From NCBI GenBank assembly GCA_014360335.1, contig JACIXS010000100.1, positions 24,431-88,430 on the forward strand: 64,000 nt of DNA, given 5' to 3'. Every line of letters begins with the position of its first letter. Positions within the stretch are counted from its first letter, which is position 1. The notes below the pieces were generated by a model. The model ran no database searches. It was not told the origin of the DNA and saw only the letters and a list, made by a program, of their open reading frames with translations. A program made the position numbers and the translations under genes. This DNA comes from a bacterium (GTDB taxonomy: Bacteria > DUMJ01). Positions 8,117-53,869 of this stretch are shown piece by piece.

Positions 8117-8469
8117 TGGTGGAGGCGGCGGGAATCGAACCCGCGTCCGAGAATGAGACGCCAAAAGGCTCCTACAGGATTAGCCTCTGTTTACTTTTCC
8201 TTCTATAGGACCCCAGAGGCAGGGCTATAGAAGTAAGCTCACCTTTAATTTCCTCTTCCCCCTGTGAGCACCGGAGGAAGAGTTAGCCTGCTAGTGTCAG
8301 GCCATTTCCTACCTCGCAGGCTAAGGTAGGAATGACCTCTGCCTATCTAATTAGGCAGCTAGTGCTAACTGATTGTCAGCAGTTATTCTTTTACCGCATT
8401 TTTACGAGCCTGCGGTGACTCGTCCTGCTCCTTTTGACCTCTCCATCCCCGTCGAATCCTTACGCCCCC
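8117..8469 (-). ncRNA. ssrA: tmRNA (SsrA)
   Basis: The minus strand reads 5'-GGGGGCGUAAGGAUUCGACGGGGAU... and ends ...GGACGCGGGUUCGAUUCCCGCCGCCUCCACCA-3'. The acceptor stem has the G3:U pair. An internal tag reading frame GCU GAC AAU CAG UUA GCA CUA GCU GCC UAA encodes ADNQLALAA. Confidence 0.92.
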
Positions 8470-8924
8470 TTATACTCTTTTAAGGCTCTTTCAAGTTCTC
8501 TTACCTTTTCTTTTTCTATAAGTAGCTTCTTTTTATCTACTAATTTTCTACCCTTTGCTAAAGCTATCTCTAGCTTAGCTCTTCCTCTTCTAAAGTATAC
8601 CTTTAATGGGATTATAGAGTATCCTCGTAATTGGCTCCTACCTGCGAGGTACTCTATCTCTTCTTTATGGAGGAGAAGCTTTCTTGTCCTATCAGGGTCC
8701 AAATTATATCTACCACCCTCTTTATAAGGTGGTATATGCATATTTATTATCCATGCTTCTCCATCCTTTATCTGTATATAACTATCTCTTAGATTACAAC
8801 TCCCTCTTCTAAGACTCTTTACTTCAGTTCCAGATAATACTATTCCTGCCTCTAATGTCTCTTCTATATCGTAATCATGATAAGCCTTTCTGTTAACTGT
8901 TACTACCTTTTCTTCCTCTTTCAA
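8460..8924 (-). CDS. smpB: SsrA-binding protein
   Basis: SmpB family (NRKAYHDY...LSGTEVKS...), 154 aa. Its stop codon overlaps the 5' end of tmRNA by about 10 nt. Confidence 0.93.
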   Translation of the reverse strand: MKEEEKVVTVNRKAYHDYDIEETLEAGIVLSGTEVKSLRRGSCNLRDSYIQIKDGEAWIINMHIPPYKEGGRYNLDPDRTRKLLLHKEEIEYLAGRSQLRGYSIIPLKVYFRRGRAKLEIALAKGRKLVDKKKLLIEKEKVRELERALKEYKGA

Positions 8925-10360: not shown

Positions 10361-11227
10361 TTAGAGCTTTGAGATAGTTTTCTTTAACTCTAACGCCTTT
10401 TTATAGACCTGATTCCTTGGCAGATTAAAGCTCTTAGAGACCCTTTCTACAGCTTCCTTTAGGGTAATATCTTCTTTAATTATGAAGTCTACTAATAGTG
10501 CCTCTATACTTGTTTCGAGTCTATTCTCTTGTGTAGGTTTTTCTCTATTGTAGATTATTACTGTATATTCTCCAAGATTGGTCTTTGTGTCATTTTTTAG
10601 GTTTTCCAGGACGGTTTTTATATCTCCTATGTAAGACCTCTCAAAGACCTTAGTAAGTTCGCAGAAAAAACATACTGTAGCATTGGGCAGTTCTTTAGCA
10701 ATAAGCTCAGCAAGTGATATTATCCTCTTTGGTGACTCGTATAAGACTACTGTCTCTATCCCTTTTTGTTTTATATCTCTTATAATATTTTCTCTTTCTG
10801 ACTCCTTCTTAGGTAGAAATCCTAGAAATAAAAAATGTTCTATGGGTATCCCAGATACAGATAAGGCTGTCATAACAGCAGATGGACCGGGTATCGGAAT
10901 AACATCTATACCTCTTTCTCTTGCATCTCTTACAATCCTATATCCAGGGTCTGATATACACGGCGTCCCAGCGTTAGATACTAAAGCCACATCCATTCCT
11001 TTCTCTACAATATACTTTATAAGTAACTTAGACCTTTCTTCTTCGTTATATTTATGGTATGAGATTAATTTAGTCTTTATATTGTAATGCTTTAGAAGTA
11101 TCGAAGTATGCCTAGTATCTTCAGCAGCTATCAGGTCACAGCTACTAAGAATCTCTACAGCCCTATAAGTGATATCTTTCAGATTACCTATAGGTGTGGC
11201 TACTACGTAAAGTTTTCCCACCTTCAT
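10361..11227 (-). CDS. rsmI: 16S rRNA (cytidine1402-2'-O)-methyltransferase
   Basis: Tetrapyrrole-methylase fold with the RsmI N-terminus (LYVVATPIGNLKDIT...AAEDTR). Confidence 0.88.
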   Translation of the reverse strand: MKVGKLYVVATPIGNLKDITYRAVEILSSCDLIAAEDTRHTSILLKHYNIKTKLISYHKYNEEERSKLLIKYIVEKGMDVALVSNAGTPCISDPGYRIVRDARERGIDVIPIPGPSAVMTALSVSGIPIEHFLFLGFLPKKESERENIIRDIKQKGIETVVLYESPKRIISLAELIAKELPNATVCFFCELTKVFERSYIGDIKTVLENLKNDTKTNLGEYTVIIYNREKPTQENRLETSIEALLVDFIIKEDITLKEAVERVSKSFNLPRNQVYKKALELKKTISKL

Positions 11228-12015
11228 CCTCTTTCTATCAGAATGTAAAACATTTCATTTTTAAAGATGAATCTTTTTATAATCTTATATTTCTCCTTAA
11301 GGATTGGTTCAAAGGTCTTGCTGTAGTTTTCTAGCATTCCTTTTTCCTTTCCACTAATACTCTTTAGGGGAAAAGAAACTATTAAAAATTTACTATTAAG
11401 ACTGTTTAATAATTTTAAAGAAAATCCCTTTTTTATCCGCTCAGCTATAGGGAGAAACTTAAATATAAAACATATATCTGTGCGGTCTTCAATATCTTCA
11501 AAGAGAATATCCTTTCTCTTAGCTAGTCTTGGATAAGATAAGATGTCTAAGAACTTATTTATGCTTTCTATTAGCGTAGAGTCTATATCATAGGCATAGT
11601 ACAATATAGGACCCTCTATATTCATAAAAGGTATGGAAAAGGGGTTGAGTCCACAGGCTAAATCTAGTACAGAATTTGGTTTTCCAGTAACCTCAAATAT
11701 CCCTCTATATACCTCTTCATATATATCCATCCGTTCTCTAGTAGACTGATGGAGTTTTAGTATCTCTTTTGCTATTTCTCTAATATTTCTATCACCTCTT
11801 TCCAATACTAAAAGTAAGTCTTTGACTTTTTCAACATCTTTACTACCTAAGAATGCTCCATGAATCTGGTGAAGCTTACTCTTGACCGCTTTTATTAAAT
11901 CCCTTTCATTCCTATGCTTGGGCAATTCTATCTTTACTATCTCTAAGATTGTCTTTTCGTTTATGTCTTTATATTTACTAGAAAGTCTTATCCTCTCTAC
12001 AATCTCTTCAATCAT
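11224..12015 (-). CDS. FmrO/ArmA/Rmt-family 16S rRNA (guanine1405-N7)-methyltransferase homologue
   Basis: Blocks match those I recall from ArmA/RmtB/Sgm: KLHQIHGAF, HQSTRERM, VLDLACGLNPFSIP (SAM motif I), YYAYDID, and the C-terminal FLIVSFPLKSISGKEKGMLENY. 263 aa, the same length as the resistance methyltransferases. Confidence 0.75.
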   Translation of the reverse strand: MIEEIVERIRLSSKYKDINEKTILEIVKIELPKHRNERDLIKAVKSKLHQIHGAFLGSKDVEKVKDLLLVLERGDRNIREIAKEILKLHQSTRERMDIYEEVYRGIFEVTGKPNSVLDLACGLNPFSIPFMNIEGPILYYAYDIDSTLIESINKFLDILSYPRLAKRKDILFEDIEDRTDICFIFKFLPIAERIKKGFSLKLLNSLNSKFLIVSFPLKSISGKEKGMLENYSKTFEPILKEKYKIIKRFIFKNEMFYILIERG

Positions 12016-38383: not shown

Positions 38384-38394
38384 GTAAAAGCTGT

Positions 38395-38575
38395 GAAGAG
38401 GAGTAGTAGCCATTTAAGGTGAACTCGCCTCAGAGCTGGATAGGTGAAATAGTAGTAGCTTATCCCGGGAATTCCCGTTATAGAATAGAGAGTGGGCTTA
38501 AAAGCCAATTAGGGTGGTACCGCGGAAAGCTTTCCGTCCCTAGCAGTTTGCTGTGGAGGGAAAGCTTTTTTATAA
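38395..38575 (+). promoter_or_regulatory. T-box riboswitch leader, with its intrinsic terminator spanning roughly 38526-38571
   Basis: Canonical T-box sequence AATTAGGGTGGTACCGCGG at 38507-38525. It is immediately followed by a terminator stem AAAGCUUUCC...GGAAAGCUUU plus UUUUUU whose 5' arm overlaps the T-box, which is the antiterminator/terminator alternation. A possible CUC (Leu) specifier lies in a GAACUCGCC context. Confidence 0.8.
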
Positions 38576-38595: not shown

Positions 38596-40260
38596 ATGCG
38601 TAGTGATGAAGTTAAAAAAGGAATTGAGAGGGCTCCACATAGGTCACTTTTAAAGGCATTGGGTATAGACGATGAGGAACTAGATAAACCTTTTATAGGG
38701 GTAATAAATAGCTATTCGGAGATAATTCCTGGCCATATACATTTGGCAAAGATAGCAGAGGGGGTAAAGGCTGGCATAAGAGAAGCAGGTGGAATTCCGT
38801 TTGAGTGTGAAACGATAGGTATATGCGATGGAATAGCTATGAATCACAGTGGAATGTGTTTTTCTCTTCCGTCTAGGGAACTTATTGCAGATAGTGTTGA
38901 ATCACTTGCCGAGGCATATAAATTTGATGGCATTGTAGTCATTCCTAACTGTGACAAGATTGTCCCTGGTATGATTATGGGATTGGCAAGGGTAAATATC
39001 CCTTCTATACTTGTCAGTGGTGGACCTATGTTGCCTGGAGAATATAACGGAAAAAGGATAGACCTTTCTACTATATTCGAAGCGGTTGGAGCTGTTGCTA
39101 GTGGTAAGAAAGATATGGAATATTTAAGAGAGCTGGAATACTCTGCCTGTCCTGGGTGTGGATCTTGCGCTGGAATGTTTACAGCAAATTCTATGAATTG
39201 TCTATCTGAGGCTATTGGAATAGCCCTTCCTGGAAATGGTACTATACCTGCAGTTGAAGCGGGAAGAATAAGATTAGCCAAAGCTACAGGAAGAGCAATA
39301 GTAAGACTAGTTAAGGAGAACATTATACCTAGTATGATTCTTACCAAGTCAGCGTTCTTGAATGGAATAGCCTTAGATATGGCTTTGGGTTGTTCCACTA
39401 ATACGATCTTGCATCTTACTGCTATAGCTAACGAGCTAGGTATCGGATTAGATTTTGACGAGATAAATAGTATAGCTGATAAGACTCCTTATCTTTGCTA
39501 CTTGAGTCCTGTAGGTCCATACTATGTAATAGACCTTTATAGGGCTGGTGGAGTTATGGCTGTTTTAAAAGAGCTTAACAAGAAAGAGCTTGTAGATAGG
39601 AATACACTTACGGTTAGCGGAAAGAAGCTAGGAGAGTTGATAGATAGTGCTGAGGTAAAAGATTATAATGTGATAAGGCCCATAGATAATCCTATAAGAG
39701 AAACGGGTGGATTATCTATACTTAGGGGAACTTTAGCTCCAGATGGGGCGGTAGTTAAGAGATCAGGAGTAGCAGAGTCTCTTTATAGATTTATTGGAAA
39801 GGCTAAGGTTTTTGATGGTGAAGACGAGGCCACAAAAGCCATATTTGGTAATAAGATAGAAAAGGGTGATGTAGTTATAATTAGATACGAGGGACCTAAG
39901 GGTGGTCCTGGAATGAGAGAGATGCTTACTCCTACATCTGCTCTTGTTGGTATGGGATTAGATTTAGATGTTGCTCTTATTACTGACGGTAGATTCTCTG
40001 GTGCTACTAGAGGATTAGCTATAGGCCATGTATCTCCAGAGGCTTGGGAAGGTGGACCTATAGCTTATGTACGAGATGGAGACCTTATAGAGATAGACTT
40101 GAATAAGAGAGAAGTGAATCTTCTAGTTGATAAGGAAGAGATTGCTAGAAGAACCTATAAGGTTCCAGAGAGTCATAAGCGTAAAGGATATCTTGGTAGA
40201 TATCAGAAATTAGTATCCTCTGCTTCATTTGGAGCAGTTATGGAGGTAAATAGAAGATGA
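38596..40260 (+). CDS. ilvD: Dihydroxy-acid dehydratase
   Basis: ILVD_EDD family with Fe-S cysteine motifs (CDKIVPG, CPGCGSC). Confidence 0.95.
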
Positions 40261-43432: not shown

Positions 43433-44923
43433 ATGAGAAAGGTCTTTATATTTGATACTACTCTTAGGGATGGCGAGCAAACCCCTAGAGTTACACTTGA
43501 ACCTCAAGAGAAACTTAGGATAGCTAAACAGCTTGAGGAAATGGGGGTAGATGTTATAGAGGCCGGTTTTCCCATTGCGTCTCCAGGTGATGTAGAAGCG
43601 GTTACTATAATCTCTAAAGAGATAAAGAATAGTATAGTATGTGGGTTGGCTAGGTCTATTAGGAAGGATATAGATACAGCGTGGTCTGCCCTTCAGTATG
43701 CAAAAAGACCTAGGATACACGTGTTTATAGCAACTAGCGATATACATATGAAGTATAAGCTGAGAAAGACTAAGGAGGAAGTATTAGAACAAGCTGTGGA
43801 GGCGGTAAGATATGCCAAATCTCTCTGTGAGGATGTGGAATTCTCCGCTGAAGATGCCACTAGGTCAGACCCAGAATTCTTAAGAGAGATTTTCTTACGA
43901 GTTATAGAGGCAGGAGCTACAGTTATAAATGTTCCTGATACTGTCGGTTACTGTGTGCCAAGTGAGTTCGGAAATCTTATAGCTCAGGTAAGAAGTTATA
44001 TCCCAGAAGATATCATTTTAAGTGTCCACTGCCATAATGACTTAGGTCTAGCTACTGCTAATTCCTTAGTTGGTGTACTTAATGGAGCTAATCAGGTAGA
44101 GGTAGCTATGAATGGATTGGGAGAAAGGGCAGGGAATGCTGCCTTTGAAGAAGTGGTAATGGCTATAAAAACAAGAAAAGACATATTTAACGCATATACA
44201 GATATAAAGACAGAGTATATTATGAGTCTAAGTAGGCTTGTAAGTGGGCTTACCGGCATACCAGTTCAGCCAAACAAAGCTATTGTTGGCATTAATGCCT
44301 TTGCTCATGAAGCGGGAATTCACCAGGATGGTATTCTTAAGGAGAGAAGCACTTACGAGATAATGAATCCTAAAGATATAGGTCTAGATTCCTCCGAGAT
44401 AGTGCTAGGTAAACATTCTGGTAGACATGCCCTTAATGAAAGGCTTAAACAGTTAGGTTACGTTCTCTCGGAAGAAGAACTGACTAGGGTTTTTGAAAGG
44501 TTTAAGGTGCTTGCTGATAAAAAGAGAGAGATCCTAGATAGAGACCTTATAGCCCTTTTAGAGGAAAAGCCTGTAGAATTACCTGTGTATAGACTCGTTA
44601 ATATGGAGGTAACAACAAAGATAAATAATAGCTCATATGCAAAGGTAGACCTTGAAAAAGCCGAAGAGAGATTCCATGGAGAATCAGAAGGAGATGGACC
44701 TATTGAGGCGCTTTTTAATGCTATAGAAAACGCTATTAATATGCACTTTGACCTTATAGACTTTTCTCTAAAGTCTGTTACTATGGGTAAAGATGCTTTG
44801 GGAGAAGCCTTAGTTAAGCTGAAAAAGGATGGAGAGGTTCATTCTGGTAGAGGCACTAGCAAGAACATTCTTGAGGCTAGTGTTATAGCATATATAAACG
44901 CTATAAATAGGGCTCTTGCTTAA
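43433..44923 (+). CDS. leuA: 2-isopropylmalate synthase / (R)-citramalate synthase family (short LeuA/CimA form)
   Basis: FDTTLRDGEQ N-terminal motif, HxH (HCHNDLGLA), and a C-terminal regulatory domain; 496 aa. Confidence 0.85.
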   Translation: MRKVFIFDTTLRDGEQTPRVTLEPQEKLRIAKQLEEMGVDVIEAGFPIASPGDVEAVTIISKEIKNSIVCGLARSIRKDIDTAWSALQYAKRPRIHVFIATSDIHMKYKLRKTKEEVLEQAVEAVRYAKSLCEDVEFSAEDATRSDPEFLREIFLRVIEAGATVINVPDTVGYCVPSEFGNLIAQVRSYIPEDIILSVHCHNDLGLATANSLVGVLNGANQVEVAMNGLGERAGNAAFEEVVMAIKTRKDIFNAYTDIKTEYIMSLSRLVSGLTGIPVQPNKAIVGINAFAHEAGIHQDGILKERSTYEIMNPKDIGLDSSEIVLGKHSGRHALNERLKQLGYVLSEEELTRVFERFKVLADKKREILDRDLIALLEEKPVELPVYRLVNMEVTTKINNSSYAKVDLEKAEERFHGESEGDGPIEALFNAIENAINMHFDLIDFSLKSVTMGKDALGEALVKLKKDGEVHSGRGTSKNILEASVIAYINAINRALA

Positions 44924-44962
44924 TCCCTACTAGGTTGATATAATCTAATATAGGTAAGAAAG

Positions 44963-46219
44963 ATGGGAATGACACTTACAGAAAAGATTATTTCTGCGCA
45001 TACAAATAAGGATGAGGTTCATAGCGGGGAATTTGTAATAGCTAAAGTCGATTTTTCTCTTGCCAATGATATAACTGGTCCTTTAGCTATTAAAGAGTTT
45101 GAGAAGATAGGGGTAGATAGGGTTTTCGATAAAGAGAGAATTGCACTTATCCCCGACCATTTTACCCCTAATAAGGATATCCCTAGTGCCGAGCAGTGTA
45201 AAGTCTTGAGAGAATTTGCCCGTAGGATGGACCTTAAATATTACTATGAAGTAGGACGGGTAGGTATCGAACATGCCCTTCTACCTGAAGAAGGCTTAGT
45301 TGTCCCCGGTGATGTAGTTATAGGTGCAGATTCGCATACATGTACCTATGGAGCTTTAGGGGCTTTCTCAACAGGTGTAGGAAGTACAGATTTGGCTAAT
45401 GTCTGGGCTACAGGTGATATATGGCTTAGAGTCCCTGAGAGTATAAAGTTTATACTATATGGTAAGCCTCAAAAGTGGGTCACTGGTAAAGATATTATCC
45501 TGAACATTATAGGACGTATAGGGGTAGAAGGGGCAAATTATATGGCGATGGAATTTTCAGGCGAAGCTCTAAAGTATATTTCTATGGACTCAAGATTTAC
45601 TATATGTAATATGGCTATCGAAGCTGGTGCAAAAAATGGTATTATCCCTTTTGATGATATTACAGCTAACTATATGAAGGGTAGAAACAAGAGACCTTAT
45701 AAGATATATCTTCCAGATGAGTCTGCAGATTATAAAGAGATAATAGAGATAGATGTCTCTAGCATCCCACTAGAAGTGGCTCTCCCTCATTTACCTTCTA
45801 ATGTAAAGTCTGTAGAGGACATTGGAGAGATATATATAGACCAAGTAGTCATAGGTTCTTGCACAAACGGAAGAATGGAAGACTTAAGGATAGCTGCTCA
45901 GATTTTAAAGGGCAAAAAGGTCCATCCATACGTTAGATTAATAGTCATTCCTGCCACCCAAGAGATATATCTACAGGCTTTAAAGGAGGGACTTATAGAG
46001 ATATTTATCTCTGCCGGTGCTAGTGTTTCTACACCTACCTGTGGTCCATGCTTAGGTGGACATATGGGTATCTTGGCTAAGGGGGAAAAAGCATTAGCAA
46101 CTACTAATAGGAATTTTATAGGCAGAATGGGTCATCCAGAAAGTGAAGTCTATCTCTGTGGACCAGCTGTAGCAGCTGCCTCTAGCATAGAAGGAAAGAT
46201 AACTGCTCCATATGATTAG
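44963..46219 (+). CDS. leuC: 3-isopropylmalate dehydratase large subunit (archaeal-type, about 420 aa, aconitase family)
   Basis: Aconitase-family cysteine triad region (GSCTNGR...CGPCLG). Confidence 0.85.
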
Positions 46220-48406: not shown

Positions 48407-49057
48407 TTGCCAATAATAACCATATCAAGAGAGGTAGGCAGTGGTGGAGATGAGGTAGCCCATAGATTGTGCGAAGTATTAGGTTACCGATACTTTGATA
48501 AGGCACTTATGACAGAAGTTGCTGTTAAGATGGGGATATCGGAAGTAGAGGTTATAGACTACTCTGAAGATAGCTATAAACTACGTTCCTTTATAGATAA
48601 TCTTTTTAGACGTCGTGAGCCTCTAGCCACCATAACGATTAGAGGGACAAATTCTGCAGGAGAGATAACTCATATGACTGAGGTTTTAGATGAAGAGAGA
48701 GCTCTCAAACTTATACAGAGAACTATAGAAAGACTAAGAGAAAAAGGTAACATAGTTATAGTAGGACGTGGAAGTCAAGTAATACTTAGAGATGCTCCAG
48801 GGGTTCTTCATGTAAGGATAGTTGCCCCAATAGAACAGCGTATAAGCTATATAATGATAAATCGTAGTCTTACTAGAAACGAAGCTAGAGAATACCTGGA
48901 AGCTAAAGATAGGGCATCTGCAGAATATCTACGGAGATTTTATGGAGTAGATTGGAATGACCCTTCCCTTTATCATCTTGTGATAAATATGGGTAGATGG
49001 AATACCGATGAGGCGGTAGAGATTATTCAATATGCTCTAAAGAAGATACAAGGCTAG
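48407..49057 (+). CDS. Cytidylate-kinase-like family P-loop protein
   Basis: Degenerate P-loop REVGSGGDEV and a roughly 215-aa Cytidylate_kin2-like layout. TTG start with GGAGGTG 9 nt upstream. Confidence 0.6.
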   Translation: MPIITISREVGSGGDEVAHRLCEVLGYRYFDKALMTEVAVKMGISEVEVIDYSEDSYKLRSFIDNLFRRREPLATITIRGTNSAGEITHMTEVLDEERALKLIQRTIERLREKGNIVIVGRGSQVILRDAPGVLHVRIVAPIEQRISYIMINRSLTRNEAREYLEAKDRASAEYLRRFYGVDWNDPSLYHLVINMGRWNTDEAVEIIQYALKKIQG

Positions 49058-50178
49058 GAAGGATCTGTATAAGAAGATATCTTACCTTCGAAGTTTCTAA
49101 GTAATATCTGGTCTCCATTCCTTCCTATGATATACTGTGGACTTACTGGTATCTTGCCCATACCTGGAGCATCTATTACAAATGTGGGAACAGCTAATCC
49201 TGAGGTAAACCCTTGAAGCGCTTCTATAATTTCTATCCCCTTTTCTACAGGAGTCCTAAAATGAGAAAGTCCTTCAACCATATCACATTGATATAAATAG
49301 TAAGGCCTTACTCTTATTTTTAACAATCCTTGAACTAGTTTCTTCATAACTGCTACGTCATCGTTTATCCCCTTTAAAAGGACCGATTGATTCCCTAAGG
49401 GTATTCCGGCATCTGCTAACATCTCACAAGCCCGAGATGATTCAGGGGTAATCTCATTTGGATGATTAAAATGAGTATTTATCCATATAGGATGATATTT
49501 CCGTAGCATACTGCATAATTCAGGGGTAACTCTTTGAGGTAGAGTTACTGGGACTCTTGTCCCTATTCTAATAATCTCAATATGGCTTATGTTCCTTAGA
49601 TTAGAAATTATCACCTCTATCATTCGATCAGGAAGGATTAGAGGGTCACCACCAGAGATGATTACATCTCTAATCTCTCTATGAGAAGCGATATATTCAA
49701 ATGCTTTATTTAGTTCTATATGATTACTGCTCTTTTTTACCTTCTCAGTTAATCTCCTCCTAGTACAGTGCCTACATAAAGTTGGACAGGAATCTGTCAC
49801 TAATAAGAGGACTCTATCTGGATATCTATGGACTAATCCAGGTAAAGGGGAATAGACATCCTCTTTTAAAGGGTCTTCTGTCTCATATGGCATATGCTCT
49901 AATTCGTGTATACTTGGTATCGACTGAAGTCTTATAGGGTCATTATAATTTGATTGATCTATCAGTGAAAGATAATAAGGGGTTATAGCCATTTTTAAAT
50001 ATTTCAAACTCTTTTCTATATCTTCCTTCTCTTGTTCTGCTAAATCCAGAATCCTCTCTAAGTCTTCCAATCTGGTGGTTCTATTTCTAAGTTGCCATCT
50101 CCAATCATTCCATACTTCTTTATCTACATCAAAAAAATCCCTAACTCTGAATTCTGATTTAGTTGACTCTGTCTCCAT
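49054..50178 (-). CDS. kamA: L-lysine 2,3-aminomutase (KamA, radical SAM/PLP), short form
   Basis: Collinear with Clostridium KamA as recalled (WNDWRWQLRNR, CPTLCRHCTRR radical-SAM cluster, VRPYYLYQCD, PTFVIDAPG). It lacks the roughly 40 C-terminal residues of the clostridial enzyme. Confidence 0.85.
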   Translation of the reverse strand: METESTKSEFRVRDFFDVDKEVWNDWRWQLRNRTTRLEDLERILDLAEQEKEDIEKSLKYLKMAITPYYLSLIDQSNYNDPIRLQSIPSIHELEHMPYETEDPLKEDVYSPLPGLVHRYPDRVLLLVTDSCPTLCRHCTRRRLTEKVKKSSNHIELNKAFEYIASHREIRDVIISGGDPLILPDRMIEVIISNLRNISHIEIIRIGTRVPVTLPQRVTPELCSMLRKYHPIWINTHFNHPNEITPESSRACEMLADAGIPLGNQSVLLKGINDDVAVMKKLVQGLLKIRVRPYYLYQCDMVEGLSHFRTPVEKGIEIIEALQGFTSGLAVPTFVIDAPGMGKIPVSPQYIIGRNGDQILLRNFEGKISSYTDPS

Positions 50179-50181
50179 CCT

Positions 50182-51198
50182 TTAACTCCCTTCCTTATTT
50201 AAGAGAGCTGGATATCTTGAAATTCCAGCCTTTAAGATTCTAGCAATTAAATCTTTATAACTTATACCTTTAACCATAGCCATACTGGGAAAGTTTCCCT
50301 CTTTTGGATCAAGGTCTGGTAACGGATTTACTTCTAGGACGTATGGGATTTCATCTTTAGAAACTCTAATATCTAGTCTAGCTAGATCTCTGCACCTAAG
50401 AACTCTATATACTTTTAGTGAAATATTACATATCTTTTCGTATAGGCTTTTAGTTAGAGAAGCTGGACAGTAATGTTTCACCAAATGCCAGTATTTAGCT
50501 TTTATTATTCCACTAGCAAACTTACCAAGTTCGTCAGGGATAGATGAAAAATCAAGTTCTTTTATCGGTAGGACCTCTGGAGGAGCATTTCCCAATATGC
50601 CTACAGTGAGTTCTCGACCTTCTACAAATTCTTCGACTAGTGCAGGCTGACGATAAAGGTCGATAATCTTTGCAATCTGTTCTTTTAATTCTTTGAATGA
50701 GTACACTATGCTTCTACTATCTAGTCCCATACTAGAACCTTCATGGCTCGGCTTTACAATTATAGGAAATCGCAAATCTCCTATATTTTGTGTCTCTTTA
50801 AGATTGGATATAACGGTATATCTAGGTGTAGGAATATGCTCCGCGATAAAGATTTGTTTTGTTATAGGTTTATCTAAAGTTATAGCCATTGTCAGCGGAC
50901 CAGAACCGGTATAGGGTATTCCTAGCCATTCTAAAATAGCAGGAACATGAGATTCCCTAGATTCTCCTCTTATCCCTTCTCCAATGTTGAATACTATATC
51001 TGGCGAAAGCTCCTTTAAATTTTCAACAAAGGACTCATTTGCCTCAACAGGGAAAACCTTATGGCCTAAAGACTCTAAAGCCTGAACTATAGCCTCTATA
51101 GTCCGGGGCGGATCAAACTCCGCGTATCGGTCTGGAGGTTCATCATCCTCCACTATAATCTCTTCTGGTTTTTTATTAAAAGCCAAGACTATTTTCAT
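50182..51198 (-). CDS. ATP-grasp ligase of the D-alanine--D-alanine ligase family (divergent)
   Basis: Ddl-like blocks (GEGIRGES...LEWLGIPYTGSGP, KPSHEGSSMG, EVNPLPDL). Its context (kamA, no mur genes) argues against canonical Ddl. Confidence 0.7.
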   Translation of the reverse strand: MKIVLAFNKKPEEIIVEDDEPPDRYAEFDPPRTIEAIVQALESLGHKVFPVEANESFVENLKELSPDIVFNIGEGIRGESRESHVPAILEWLGIPYTGSGPLTMAITLDKPITKQIFIAEHIPTPRYTVISNLKETQNIGDLRFPIIVKPSHEGSSMGLDSRSIVYSFKELKEQIAKIIDLYRQPALVEEFVEGRELTVGILGNAPPEVLPIKELDFSSIPDELGKFASGIIKAKYWHLVKHYCPASLTKSLYEKICNISLKVYRVLRCRDLARLDIRVSKDEIPYVLEVNPLPDLDPKEGNFPSMAMVKGISYKDLIARILKAGISRYPALLNKEGS

Positions 51199-51207
51199 AC
51201 TTGCTAA

Positions 51208-51235
51208 ATTATACTTCGACCTTTATAAAAGTCAA
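51208..51235 (-). promoter_or_regulatory. Putative promoter TTGACT-N16-TATAAT whose -10 ends 9 nt before the ATP-grasp ATG (very short leader or leaderless)
   Basis: Hexamers read directly on the minus strand. No Shine-Dalgarno lies between the -10 and the ATG. Confidence 0.35.
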
Positions 51236-51270: not shown

Positions 51271-51300
51271 CAAAAAAGGCGAGGGAAGTCTCCCTCGCCT
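51271..51300 (-). terminator. Rho-independent terminator after hppA (GGCGAGGGAGACUUCCCUCGCC followed by UUUUUUG on the minus strand)
   Basis: Seen directly in the sequence. Confidence 0.65.
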
Positions 51301-51317
51301 CTAAAATATAACAGATT

Positions 51318-53288
51318 TTACCTGAATATTATACCAAATACTAGCGCAATTATAGACATAAGCTTTATCAAGATATTCATAGAGGGACCTGCGGTATCCT
51401 TAAACGGATCACCAACAGTATCTCCAATTACAGCTGCTGCATGAGTGGGTGTTCCCTTACCACCTAAATTCCCAGCTTCGATGTACTTCTTAGCGTTATC
51501 CCAAGCACCACCGCTATTTGCCATCATAATAGCTAATGCTACCCCTGTCAATATAGCACCAAGTAGAAAACCTCCTACAGCTTCTTTACCCAACACTAGT
51601 CCTATAATAATGGGGGCAACAACCGCTGTAATGCTAGGAGCTAGCATCTCTCTTAAAGCTCCTTTAGTGGCTATGTCTACGCAACGTGCATACTCTGCTC
51701 TTGCCTTTCCTTCCATTAGCCCCTTAATCTCTCTAAATTGCCTCCTTACTTCTTCTACTATCAGATTAGCGGTTCTACCTACTGCTTCCATAGCAAATGC
51801 AGAGAACATAAATGGCATTAAGGCTCCTATAAATGCTCCTATTAGAGACTTAACAGAGAGGATATTCACTATACTTAGACCTACAGTATGTGTATAGGCA
51901 CTGAATAGGGCAAGAGCGGTTAATGCTGCAGAACCAATAGCAAAACCCTTCCCTATGGCAGCAGTGGTATTCCCTAGAGCATCTAGTCTATCTGTTATCT
52001 TACGAATATTAGCTCCAAGTCCAGCCATCTCAGCTATACCACCTGCATTATCTGCTATTGGTCCATAGGCATCTGTTGACATCACTATGCCTATAGTGGC
52101 TAACATTCCAACTCCGGCTATAGCTACACCATAGAGTCCATTCAGAGCCCAAGATATACCAATAGCACCTGCAATCATTATTACTGGCACTATGATGCTC
52201 TTCATTCCAAGGGCAAGTCCCCTTATAATAACCGTACCAGCACCGGTCTGTGCACTTTCAGCTAGAGATACTATAGGTTTACCAGATGTATAATACTCAG
52301 AGACAAGACCAATAATTATCCCCACTATAAGCCCAGCCAATAATGCAAAGAGTGGATTATAGGTATTTAGTAGGGATTTTGTTAAAGGTATAGCTACTAT
52401 TACTAAAATGATCGCAGATACATAGGTTCCCCATCTAAGAGCAGATTGGGGGTCTCCTTTCCCAAATAACTGTACATAGAAAGATCCAATTATAGATGCT
52501 ACGGTTCCTACAGCTATAAGGATAAGAGGATATAGGATTGCATTTAGGGATAACTCTTTAGAGAATGCAGTAAGTCCTATTACCATAGCAGCAATAACAG
52601 CTCCTACGTATGATTCAAAGAGGTCTGCACCCATCCCTGCAACGTCTCCAACGTTATCTCCTACGTTATCCGCTATGACACCCGCATTTCTTGGGTCATC
52701 CTCAGGTATATTCTTCTCTACTTTACCTACTAAGTCTGAGCCAACATCAGCGCTTTTTGTATATATACCTCCTCCTACACGGGCAAATAGAGCTACTGAG
52801 CTAGCACCCATTCCAAATGCATTTATAACGTTAGGGTCTTTAAAGATTAGGTAGGCTATAGAAAGACCAAATACCCCAAGACCTGCAACTGCAAGCCCCA
52901 TTACAGAGCCACCAGTGAAGGCAACTCTCAAAGCTTGAGACTGACCCTTCTTTGCTGCTTCTGTAGTCCTTACATTGGCTCTAGTAGCAGCTTGCATACC
53001 AAACCATCCTGCAAATATAGAAGATATACTACCCATAACGTATGCGATAGCACTGTACGGATTGATAAATATGGCTATTACAGCAGTCATAACGATAATA
53101 AAGTATACAAGAGTCAGATACTCCCTCTTTAAAAATGCTACTGCTCCTTCGTGTATAGCGGATGCTATCTCCCGCATTCTCTCTGTTCCAGCTGGTTGCT
53201 TTGATACCCAGGTATAGAAATAATATGCGAGCAGTAGCGTCCCACCTCCTATGATTGTAGAAAGCGTTAATAAGGTATTACTGCTCAT
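51318..53288 (-). CDS. hppA: Membrane-bound proton-translocating pyrophosphatase (V-type H+-PPase)
   Basis: Multiple PPase acidic motifs ([26 protein letters not shown]) and about 16 transmembrane helices. The ATG at 53288 (MSSNTLL...) is preferred because a GGAGGAAGGAG RBS sits 8 nt upstream; the ORF-track start at 53309 falls inside that RBS. Confidence 0.9.
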
Positions 53289-53308
53289 ATACGTCACTCC
53301 TTCCTCCA

Positions 53309-53869
53309 CTAGGATTTTATAGAATTAATTTTTTGCTTTTGTTTATGTCTTTTCTCTAACTCCCTGTATACATCTTGAGGAGTCAGCTTTAAATTTGCTA
53401 GTAAGACCAATATGTGATAGAAAAGGTCAGAGACTTCATATATCACCTCACCACGATCCTCTTTCATTCCTGCCAGAAGGACCTCTACTATCTCTTCCCC
53501 TATCTTTTTAAGTATCTTTTCTTTACCCTCTTTAAAGAGTTGAGATGTATAAGAACCTTCGGTAGGGTTAAGTTTTCTGGATAGGATGATTTCGTAAAGG
53601 GTATCCAGATTAAATCTAGTATAGTCTTCTTTAGAATACAACTCTTGGAAAAAGCATGATAGATGTCCTGTATGGCAGGCTACTCCCCTTTGTTCTACTA
53701 GTACAAGTAATGCATCATTATCGCAATCCAATCTAATCTCTTTTACCTTTTGTATATTGCCACTAGTTTCCCCCTTATTCCATAACTTTTGCCTCTCTCT
53801 ACTCCAAAACCAAGTAGTCCCTGTTTCTATTGTCCTTCTCAGAGACTCCTCATTCATATAACCCAACAT
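53309..53869 (-). CDS. hisIE: Bifunctional phosphoribosyl-AMP cyclohydrolase / phosphoribosyl-ATP pyrophosphatase
   Basis: HisI motifs ([27 protein letters not shown]) and a HisE C-terminus. The conserved HisI N-terminal segment continues in frame upstream of this ATG without a canonical start codon (see findings). Confidence 0.85.

Follow-up and report, generated by a model that had tools for sequence, protein, structure and literature searches.

A lysine 2,3-aminomutase and a Ddl-like ATP-grasp ligase as a candidate two-enzyme module for beta-lysine ligation in bacteria

What does a bacterium make with a lysine 2,3-aminomutase (KamA, or LAM) whose gene adjoins that of an ATP-grasp ligase? 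The question is raised by a locus on contig JACIXS010000100.1, which we analysed within a stretch of 64,000 nucleotides (hereafter the window; unprefixed coordinates are positions in it). Known fates of beta-lysine are acetylation to an osmolyte, fermentation and modification of elongation factor P (EF-P), and it is also found in a few antibiotics. The pair described here probably forms a two-enzyme module, in which synthesis of beta-lysine would be followed by its ATP-dependent amide ligation to a small molecule. The pairing indicates a further beta-lysine route, ATP-grasp ligation, in at least 10 bacterial phyla, several of which have few cultured members. The two genes are as follows.

50182-51198, minus strand: A-type Ddl-like ATP-grasp ligase (MBC7319797.1, NCBI name 'ATP-grasp domain-containing protein')
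49054-50178, minus strand: KamA/LAM, short form without the zinc site (MBC7319796.1, NCBI name 'lysine 2,3-aminomutase')

The ligase gene (338 aa) is transcribed first and the KamA gene (374 aa) second, separated by a 3-nt spacer (50179-50181). A first-pass annotation of this DNA had placed the pair and its 3-nt gap correctly but gave the genes in reversed order, KamA being first only on plus-strand coordinates.

The first step of the proposed route depends on the identity of the aminomutase, which the same annotation had called a bona fide KamA. The protein carries the Pfam domains Radical_SAM and LAM_C, scores 535.3 bits against the AblA equivalog model NCBIfam TIGR03820 (cutoff 525.4, a narrow pass) and aligns to the crystallised LAM of Clostridium subterminale (PDB 2A5H) with 506 bits and about 62% identity. 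Matches of canonical length (413-427 aa), several of which their sources call lysine 2,3-aminomutase, are 60-63% identical to it. It passes neither the glutamate nor the arginine aminomutase models, nor that of EpmB (254.6 bits against a cutoff of 369.3). The radical-SAM motif CPTLCRHC (C131/C135/C138) is present, and so are R140 and K342, the equivalents of LAM R134 and K337, which in the LAM structure are the alpha-carboxylate arginine and the pyridoxal phosphate (PLP) lysine. D299 and D336 correspond to LAM D293 and D330, which bind the epsilon-ammonium group of lysine, glutamate 2,3-aminomutase having K and N at these positions. The same cluster motif, the R134 and K337 equivalents and both aspartates are conserved in 55/55 homologs from ligase-linked clusters. 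Retention of all lysine, PLP and cluster residues, together with the model and structure scores, supports the earlier assignment of the window KamA as a genuine lysine 2,3-aminomutase. Its substrate should be free L-lysine because the alpha-amino, carboxylate and epsilon-amino groups would all be recognised, and the ligase would therefore act afterwards.

One structural element sets this form apart. The inter-subunit zinc site of LAM (C268 plus a C-terminal CxCxxC) is missing from the window KamA, where D274 replaces C268 and the chain stops at the position that matches LAM P368, before the CxCxxC; it is likewise missing in 55/55 ligase-linked homologs and kept in the canonical-length proteins P0145, P0217, P0190 and P0183. 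The zinc site is a subfamily marker and not a catalytic requirement, and EpmB, too, presumably does without the C-terminal zinc region. When a neighbour-joining tree is rooted on E. coli EpmB, the zinc-site LAMs form a tight clade that is nested in the more diverse ligase-linked forms and adjoins the lineage of the window. This tree, crude as it is, offers a hint that linkage to the ligase may be the older state and that the zinc aminomutases of the fermentation and AblB pathways may be a derived offshoot.

The ligase matches Pfam Dala_Dala_lig_C (1.8e-35), and its AlphaFold2 model (pLDDT 93.2) finds Ddl structures as the top Foldseek matches, with TM scores of 0.77-0.86 at 26-29% identity. 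None of the curated Ddl or Van cutoffs is reached among the best 25 of 44 matching models, the best Ddl model being NF002378 with 199.4 bits against a cutoff of 243. The equivalents of DdlB K97, K144, E180, E187, K215, R255, D257, E270 and N272 are all kept. Because these ATP, Mg and catalytic residues of Ddl are conserved, the enzyme should be catalytically competent and carry out the same acyl-phosphate ligation. The substrate region is different. The N-terminal GGxSxE motif of DdlB (E15) is absent, and an acidic insert in which E27 and D29 are invariant stands in its place; H63 has become E74 (Glu in 102/108 family members), Y216 has become A234 (Trp in most family members) and S281/L282 have become G301/N302, with S150 retained. 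The conserved acidic residues gained in this region would suit a diamino acid. A neighbour-joining tree places the ligase family far from E. coli DdlB and separates B-type ligases as a clade of their own, marked by signature changes in their EGSS loop; it groups the window ligase with the A-type.

The ligase could in principle be the ordinary D-Ala-D-Ala ligase of the organism, lying next to kamA by chance. It has the Ddl fold, its nearest solved structures are all Ddl, some sources name its homologs 'D-alanine--D-alanine ligase', and it is the only DdlB-like match in the 64 kb. With every curated cutoff missed, D-Ala-binding residues altered, a branch far from DdlB, and, as described below, adjacency to KamA kept across at least 10 phyla, often with two tandem ligase copies, and four fusions to KamA, we regard this explanation as highly improbable. 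No mur/dcw context was found around the gene within the window. Judged by cutoffs, substrate residues and its context within the 64 kb, the ligase is thus a member of the Ddl fold family and not a standard Ddl, in agreement with its initial description as a divergent Ddl-family enzyme outside a mur context. Many genes named 'D-alanine--D-alanine ligase' or 'ATP-grasp domain-containing protein' are probably misnamed or under-named.

Is the pairing a peculiarity of this genome? A survey with a ligase profile, taking one genome per species, yielded 80 loci from Omnitrophota, Ignavibacteriota, Gemmatimonadota, Desulfuromonadales, Planctomycetota, Bacillota, Chloroflexota, Myxococcota, Verrucomicrobiota, Margulisiibacteriota and others. 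At 57 of the 80, representing at least 10 phyla, the fetched flank contains a KamA homolog (45-57% identical), no more than a few hundred bases from the ligase. This homolog is on the same strand as the ligase in 57/57 loci and directly downstream of it in 52. Such co-occurrence, which the first-pass annotation had proposed as a check, is strong evidence for a functional coupling of KamA and ligase. Lineages other than thermophiles also have the cassette, since groundwater, marine, peat and soil-type metagenome-assembled genomes (MAGs) are among the loci according to their record titles, and it occurs in Melioribacter and Ignavibacterium, genera with cultured members.

Three layouts recur. The order ligase-KamA is seen in the window, in its Dictyoglomi-like relatives and in several Clostridia; ligase-ligase-KamA is found in Omnitrophota; and ligase A-ligase B-GNAT-KamA recurs in many lineages, Ignavibacteriota and Gemmatimonadota among them. 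Double ligases, whether in tandem or fused, are a very frequent feature of the family. The layout of the window, an A-type ligase immediately upstream of a zinc-less LAM, matches those of L028, L070, L071, L074, L082 and L086-L089, and the window contains no homolog of a second ligase or of the GNAT. From this comparison, the window pair is the minimal form of a larger system whose four genes encode two ligase types, a GNAT and KamA. The GNAT of these clusters (about 160 aa) scores 17-18 bits against AblB (TIGR03827, cutoff 205), with RimI as its best match, also below threshold; by this measure it is not AblB.

A profile search over 1.84 billion representatives revealed natural fusions of the two enzymes: three KamA-ligase proteins (P0262, P0351 and P0380) and one ligase-KamA protein (P0387). 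The four are independent Rosetta-stone cases and include both domain orders. Their ligase domains are all A-type (4/4), as in the window. The contig of P0262 (L095) encodes the KamA-ligase A fusion followed by a ligase B-GNAT fusion, and that of P0351 (L097) encodes the KamA-ligase A fusion followed by separate ligase B and GNAT genes. Because of these arrangements, KamA is assigned as the partner of ligase A, and the GNAT as the partner of ligase B. An apparent 507-aa 'ligase B-GNAT fusion' at L017 was rejected as an ORF-calling artefact in which only residues 337-502 are GNAT.

The fusions also bear on a further alternative, namely that the ligase acts on a substrate unrelated to beta-lysine and that the linkage reflects co-regulation only. 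The occurrence of the ligase family without an adjacent KamA would fit such an arrangement, but fusions in both orders speak for reactions that follow one another or are physically coupled, and the gene spacing agrees with translational coupling (see below), so that we hold co-regulation alone to be very unlikely.

Several features of individual loci are recorded here in their own right. Many ligase-linked KamAs, though not that of the window, carry basic low-complexity tails of 30-100 residues with NGNGK-type repeats (L014, L018, L024, L026, L032, L033, L037, L077 and others), and in Ignavibacteriota these often finish in a short motif of hydrophobic and acidic residues, for instance VPVLEEVE; such tails could act in docking or as carriers. 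P0136 (L093:6001-7692), preceded by an A-type ligase, is a 563-aa KamA homolog in which the aminomutase core is partly repeated as an internal tandem duplication; this may be real or an assembly artefact. The fusion P0387 (L096:6001-8088) has an aminotransferase gene directly upstream and Gln at the LAM D293 position (YQCQ for YQCD), and because of this replacement its aminomutase half may use a substrate other than lysine. In Myxococcota and related Deltaproteobacteria, fused double ligases of about 675-960 aa occur with no KamA in the fetched flanks (L023, L036, L049, L058, L062, L063, L073, L083). Four loci in Bacillota (L001-L004, including Ca. Fermentithermobacillus carboniphilus CP062796.1) have a single A-type ligase, 47% identical to that of the window, located after lon. 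Next come a 224-231-aa GNAT (Acetyltransf_3) and, in convergent orientation, a peptidase of the S9 prolyl-oligopeptidase type; no KamA was found near this ligase. From the KamA-free loci, the ligase family would appear to work also without an adjacent aminomutase.

What, then, would the pair make? In the first step, as read from the sequence determinants, the radical-SAM/PLP enzyme KamA would turn free L-lysine into beta-lysine (3,6-diaminohexanoate). In the second, the A-type ligase would form an acyl-phosphate with ATP and couple beta-lysine, as an amide, to a second small molecule, which might be another beta-lysine, by analogy with the joining of two like substrates by Ddl, or a common amino acid. 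The outcome would be a dipeptide-like metabolite containing beta-lysine. Where all four genes are present, this product would be extended and N-acetylated by ligase B and the GNAT, in a manner like the synthesis of N-acetylglutaminylglutamine amide. A role as cytoplasmic solute or polyamine-like cation is our leading guess, and the compatible solute of a thermophile that the first-pass annotation had suggested is likewise a guess. A hint toward ion or osmotic homeostasis comes from a single locus, the fused cluster at L095:4684-7303, which adjoins two Na_H_Exchanger genes, one of them with a TrkA_N domain; it is the sole such hint.

Several points weigh against this proposal. Compatible solutes are not usually cationic, as beta-lysyl-beta-lysine would be. 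At 23 of the 80 ligase loci, including the Myxococcota fused double ligases and some Bacillota, the fetched flank is without KamA, so that beta-lysine may not be a universal substrate of the family, or KamA may lie elsewhere in those genomes. For each fusion the source is a gene call on one contig of a metagenome or MAG. Finally, the trees of the ligases and of KamA are simple neighbour-joining trees.

The nature of the acceptor leads to two further alternatives. The ligase might attach beta-lysine to a macromolecule, either a protein lysine (in EF-P or another protein), in which case it would be the ATP-grasp equivalent of EpmA, or an envelope polymer or peptidoglycan precursor. A ligase with an aminomutase would follow the logic of EpmA/EpmB, the cluster GNATs score best, if below cutoff, against the protein N-acetyltransferase RimI, and the long basic tails on many cluster KamAs could serve as docking or substrate segments. 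Yet no efp homolog is present near the pair, either in the window or at 84 loci (epmA was not searched for), and KamA falls short of the EpmB cutoff as given above. The ligase is without an additional domain that might recognise a protein, the conserved core is without mur or envelope genes, and two ligases plus a GNAT better suit the stepwise assembly of a small molecule. We therefore consider a macromolecular target unlikely. Polymerisation of beta-lysine by the ligases into a non-ribosomal, cationic poly-beta-lysine oligomer or polymer appears less likely still. Such a product would be in keeping with the coupling of two like substrates by Ddl-type enzymes, with the frequency of double ligases, and with the conserved acidic residues of the pocket (E27, D29, E74 and E82), which would suit a diamino acid; but the conserved core includes no exporter, membrane-associated component or primer-type gene, and capping by a GNAT would point to a product whose length is defined. 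More broadly, that the A- and B-type ligases are a new ATP-grasp beta-lysylation machinery unrelated to EpmA, which either polymerises beta-lysine or attaches it to a protein or envelope target, is an improbable though not negligible scenario. Ligation of beta-lysine to a small molecule remains the reading that we favour. The enzymes belong to known superfamilies; their pairing points to a beta-lysine-derived product that is undescribed. No description of the ligase-KamA pairing was found in searches of full-text literature; a Pelobacter paper considered as an earlier description was rejected, as it deals with ordinary ablA/ablB.

If ligase and KamA cooperate, are they also expressed together? 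The features bearing on this question, and the flanking genes, are these.

51318-53309: membrane pyrophosphatase gene, upstream of the ligase
51271-51300, minus strand: intrinsic terminator of the upstream pyrophosphatase gene (read directly, with folding)
51208-51235, minus strand: predicted sigma-70-type promoter (pattern and conservation)
50186-50194, minus strand: Shine-Dalgarno-like GGAAGGGAG before KamA (read directly)
48407-49057, plus strand: cytidylate-kinase-like gene, convergent with KamA

The terminator upstream of the ligase (51300-51271) has a 10-bp GC-rich stem followed by U6 and folds at -19.2 kcal/mol (z = -4.7), a value equalled by 0/200 shuffles; it is predicted to mark the upstream edge of the ligase-KamA unit. 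It is followed by TTGACT (51235-51230) and, after 16 nt, TATAAT (51213-51208), together matching 11/12 consensus positions. Promoter-like sites in the region number 9 against 9.6 in shuffles, and are thus not in excess. Both hexamers and a spacing of 9-11 nt to the ATG are kept in L086 and L088, whose ligases are 71-75% identical to that of the window. The mRNA would be leaderless or nearly so because the predicted -10 hexamer ends 9 nt ahead of the ligase ATG, as had been suggested along with a promoter of its own for the pair. Inside the 3´ end of the ligase gene, GGAAGGGAG forms a Shine-Dalgarno-like site 7 nt before the KamA ATG, and in relatives the two genes overlap by 4 nt or are 1 nt apart. 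The internal site and the tight spacing would fit translational coupling of ligase and KamA. No riboswitch or leader was detected upstream of the operon, the Rfam matches in the window being a tmRNA and a T-box, both at other places. The prediction that the two genes form one transcription unit is supported.

The surroundings are those of an ordinary chromosome, with rpoBC, ribosomal and ilv/leu/his genes and an even GC content of about 38%. The pair is placed among the membrane pyrophosphatase gene, his genes, the cytidylate-kinase-like gene and FeoAB; convergence with the cytidylate-kinase-like gene, noted at the outset, was borne out, the end of this gene sharing a 4-nt overlap with the KamA stop. 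The closest relatives of the window are MAGs labelled Dictyoglomi. The IVYWREL fraction over all 56 window ORFs is 0.449, which by the Zeldovich relation predicts a growth optimum near 86 C. This composition would fit a Dictyoglomi-like (hyper)thermophile and makes the thermophile label given by the first-pass annotation a reasonable one.

Other elements of the window are unconnected with the pair. A tmRNA gene (Rfam, 211 bits; 8117-8469, minus strand) lies directly downstream of smpB (8460-8924, minus strand) and overlaps the end of its ORF by a few bases. A T-box leader (38384-38544, plus strand; 106.8 bits) upstream of the ORF at 38596-40260 heads an apparent ilv/leu operon, with LeuA-like and aconitase-family (LeuC-like) genes at 43433-46219. 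A chromosomal rRNA methyltransferase of the FmrO family (Pfam, 5.8e-39; 11224-12015, minus strand) is located between tgt and rsmI-like genes; the family includes 16S rRNA methyltransferases of aminoglycoside resistance.

The system is small (2-4 genes), is found in genera with cultured members and has natural fusions that reveal which enzymes are partners. For these reasons, heterologous expression combined with mass spectrometry should give access to its product.

How does the pair compare with systems already known? The lysine fermentation cluster (kamA-kamDE-kdd-kce) shares the first enzyme, but the window is without kamD, kamE, kdd and kce; in a fermentation example, P0145 (416 aa, 62% identity), a full-length aminomutase with the zinc site is embedded in kce-kdd-kamA-kamD-kamE-CoA transferase. 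The AblA/AblB (YodP-type) pathway likewise starts from a lysine 2,3-aminomutase and continues with a dedicated enzyme that derivatises beta-lysine, and the window KamA passes the AblA model. There, however, the partner is a GNAT, whereas here it is an ATP-grasp ligase, and no AblB-like gene is present in the window. A GNAT in the AblB position is illustrated by P0217, a 425-aa LAM from Acetivibrio beside a 285-aa GNAT, which has the zinc site that the window KamA lacks. No ligase was found near P0145 or the Acetivibrio LAM.

In the EpmB/EpmA system, too, a KamA-family aminomutase has a partner that uses ATP to activate beta-lysine, but this partner is a paralog of lysyl-tRNA synthetase (LysRS) and not an ATP-grasp enzyme. 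With Ddl and VanA/B/C, the likeness lies in the fold and in the ATP, Mg and catalytic residues, and the differences lie in the substrate pocket, the N-terminal motif, the mur context, of which the 64 kb show none, and the linkage or fusion to KamA. In Ngg, lastly, a GNAT is reportedly fused to an ATP-grasp enzyme, and the two build an N-acetylated dipeptide, the osmolyte N-acetylglutaminylglutamine amide. It differs in its ATP-grasp subfamily and substrates, and the window has neither GNAT nor second ligase. The likeness, drawn here by description, is one of logic only: in both systems a GNAT would cooperate with an ATP-grasp enzyme, as seen most directly in the ligase B-GNAT fusion of L095.

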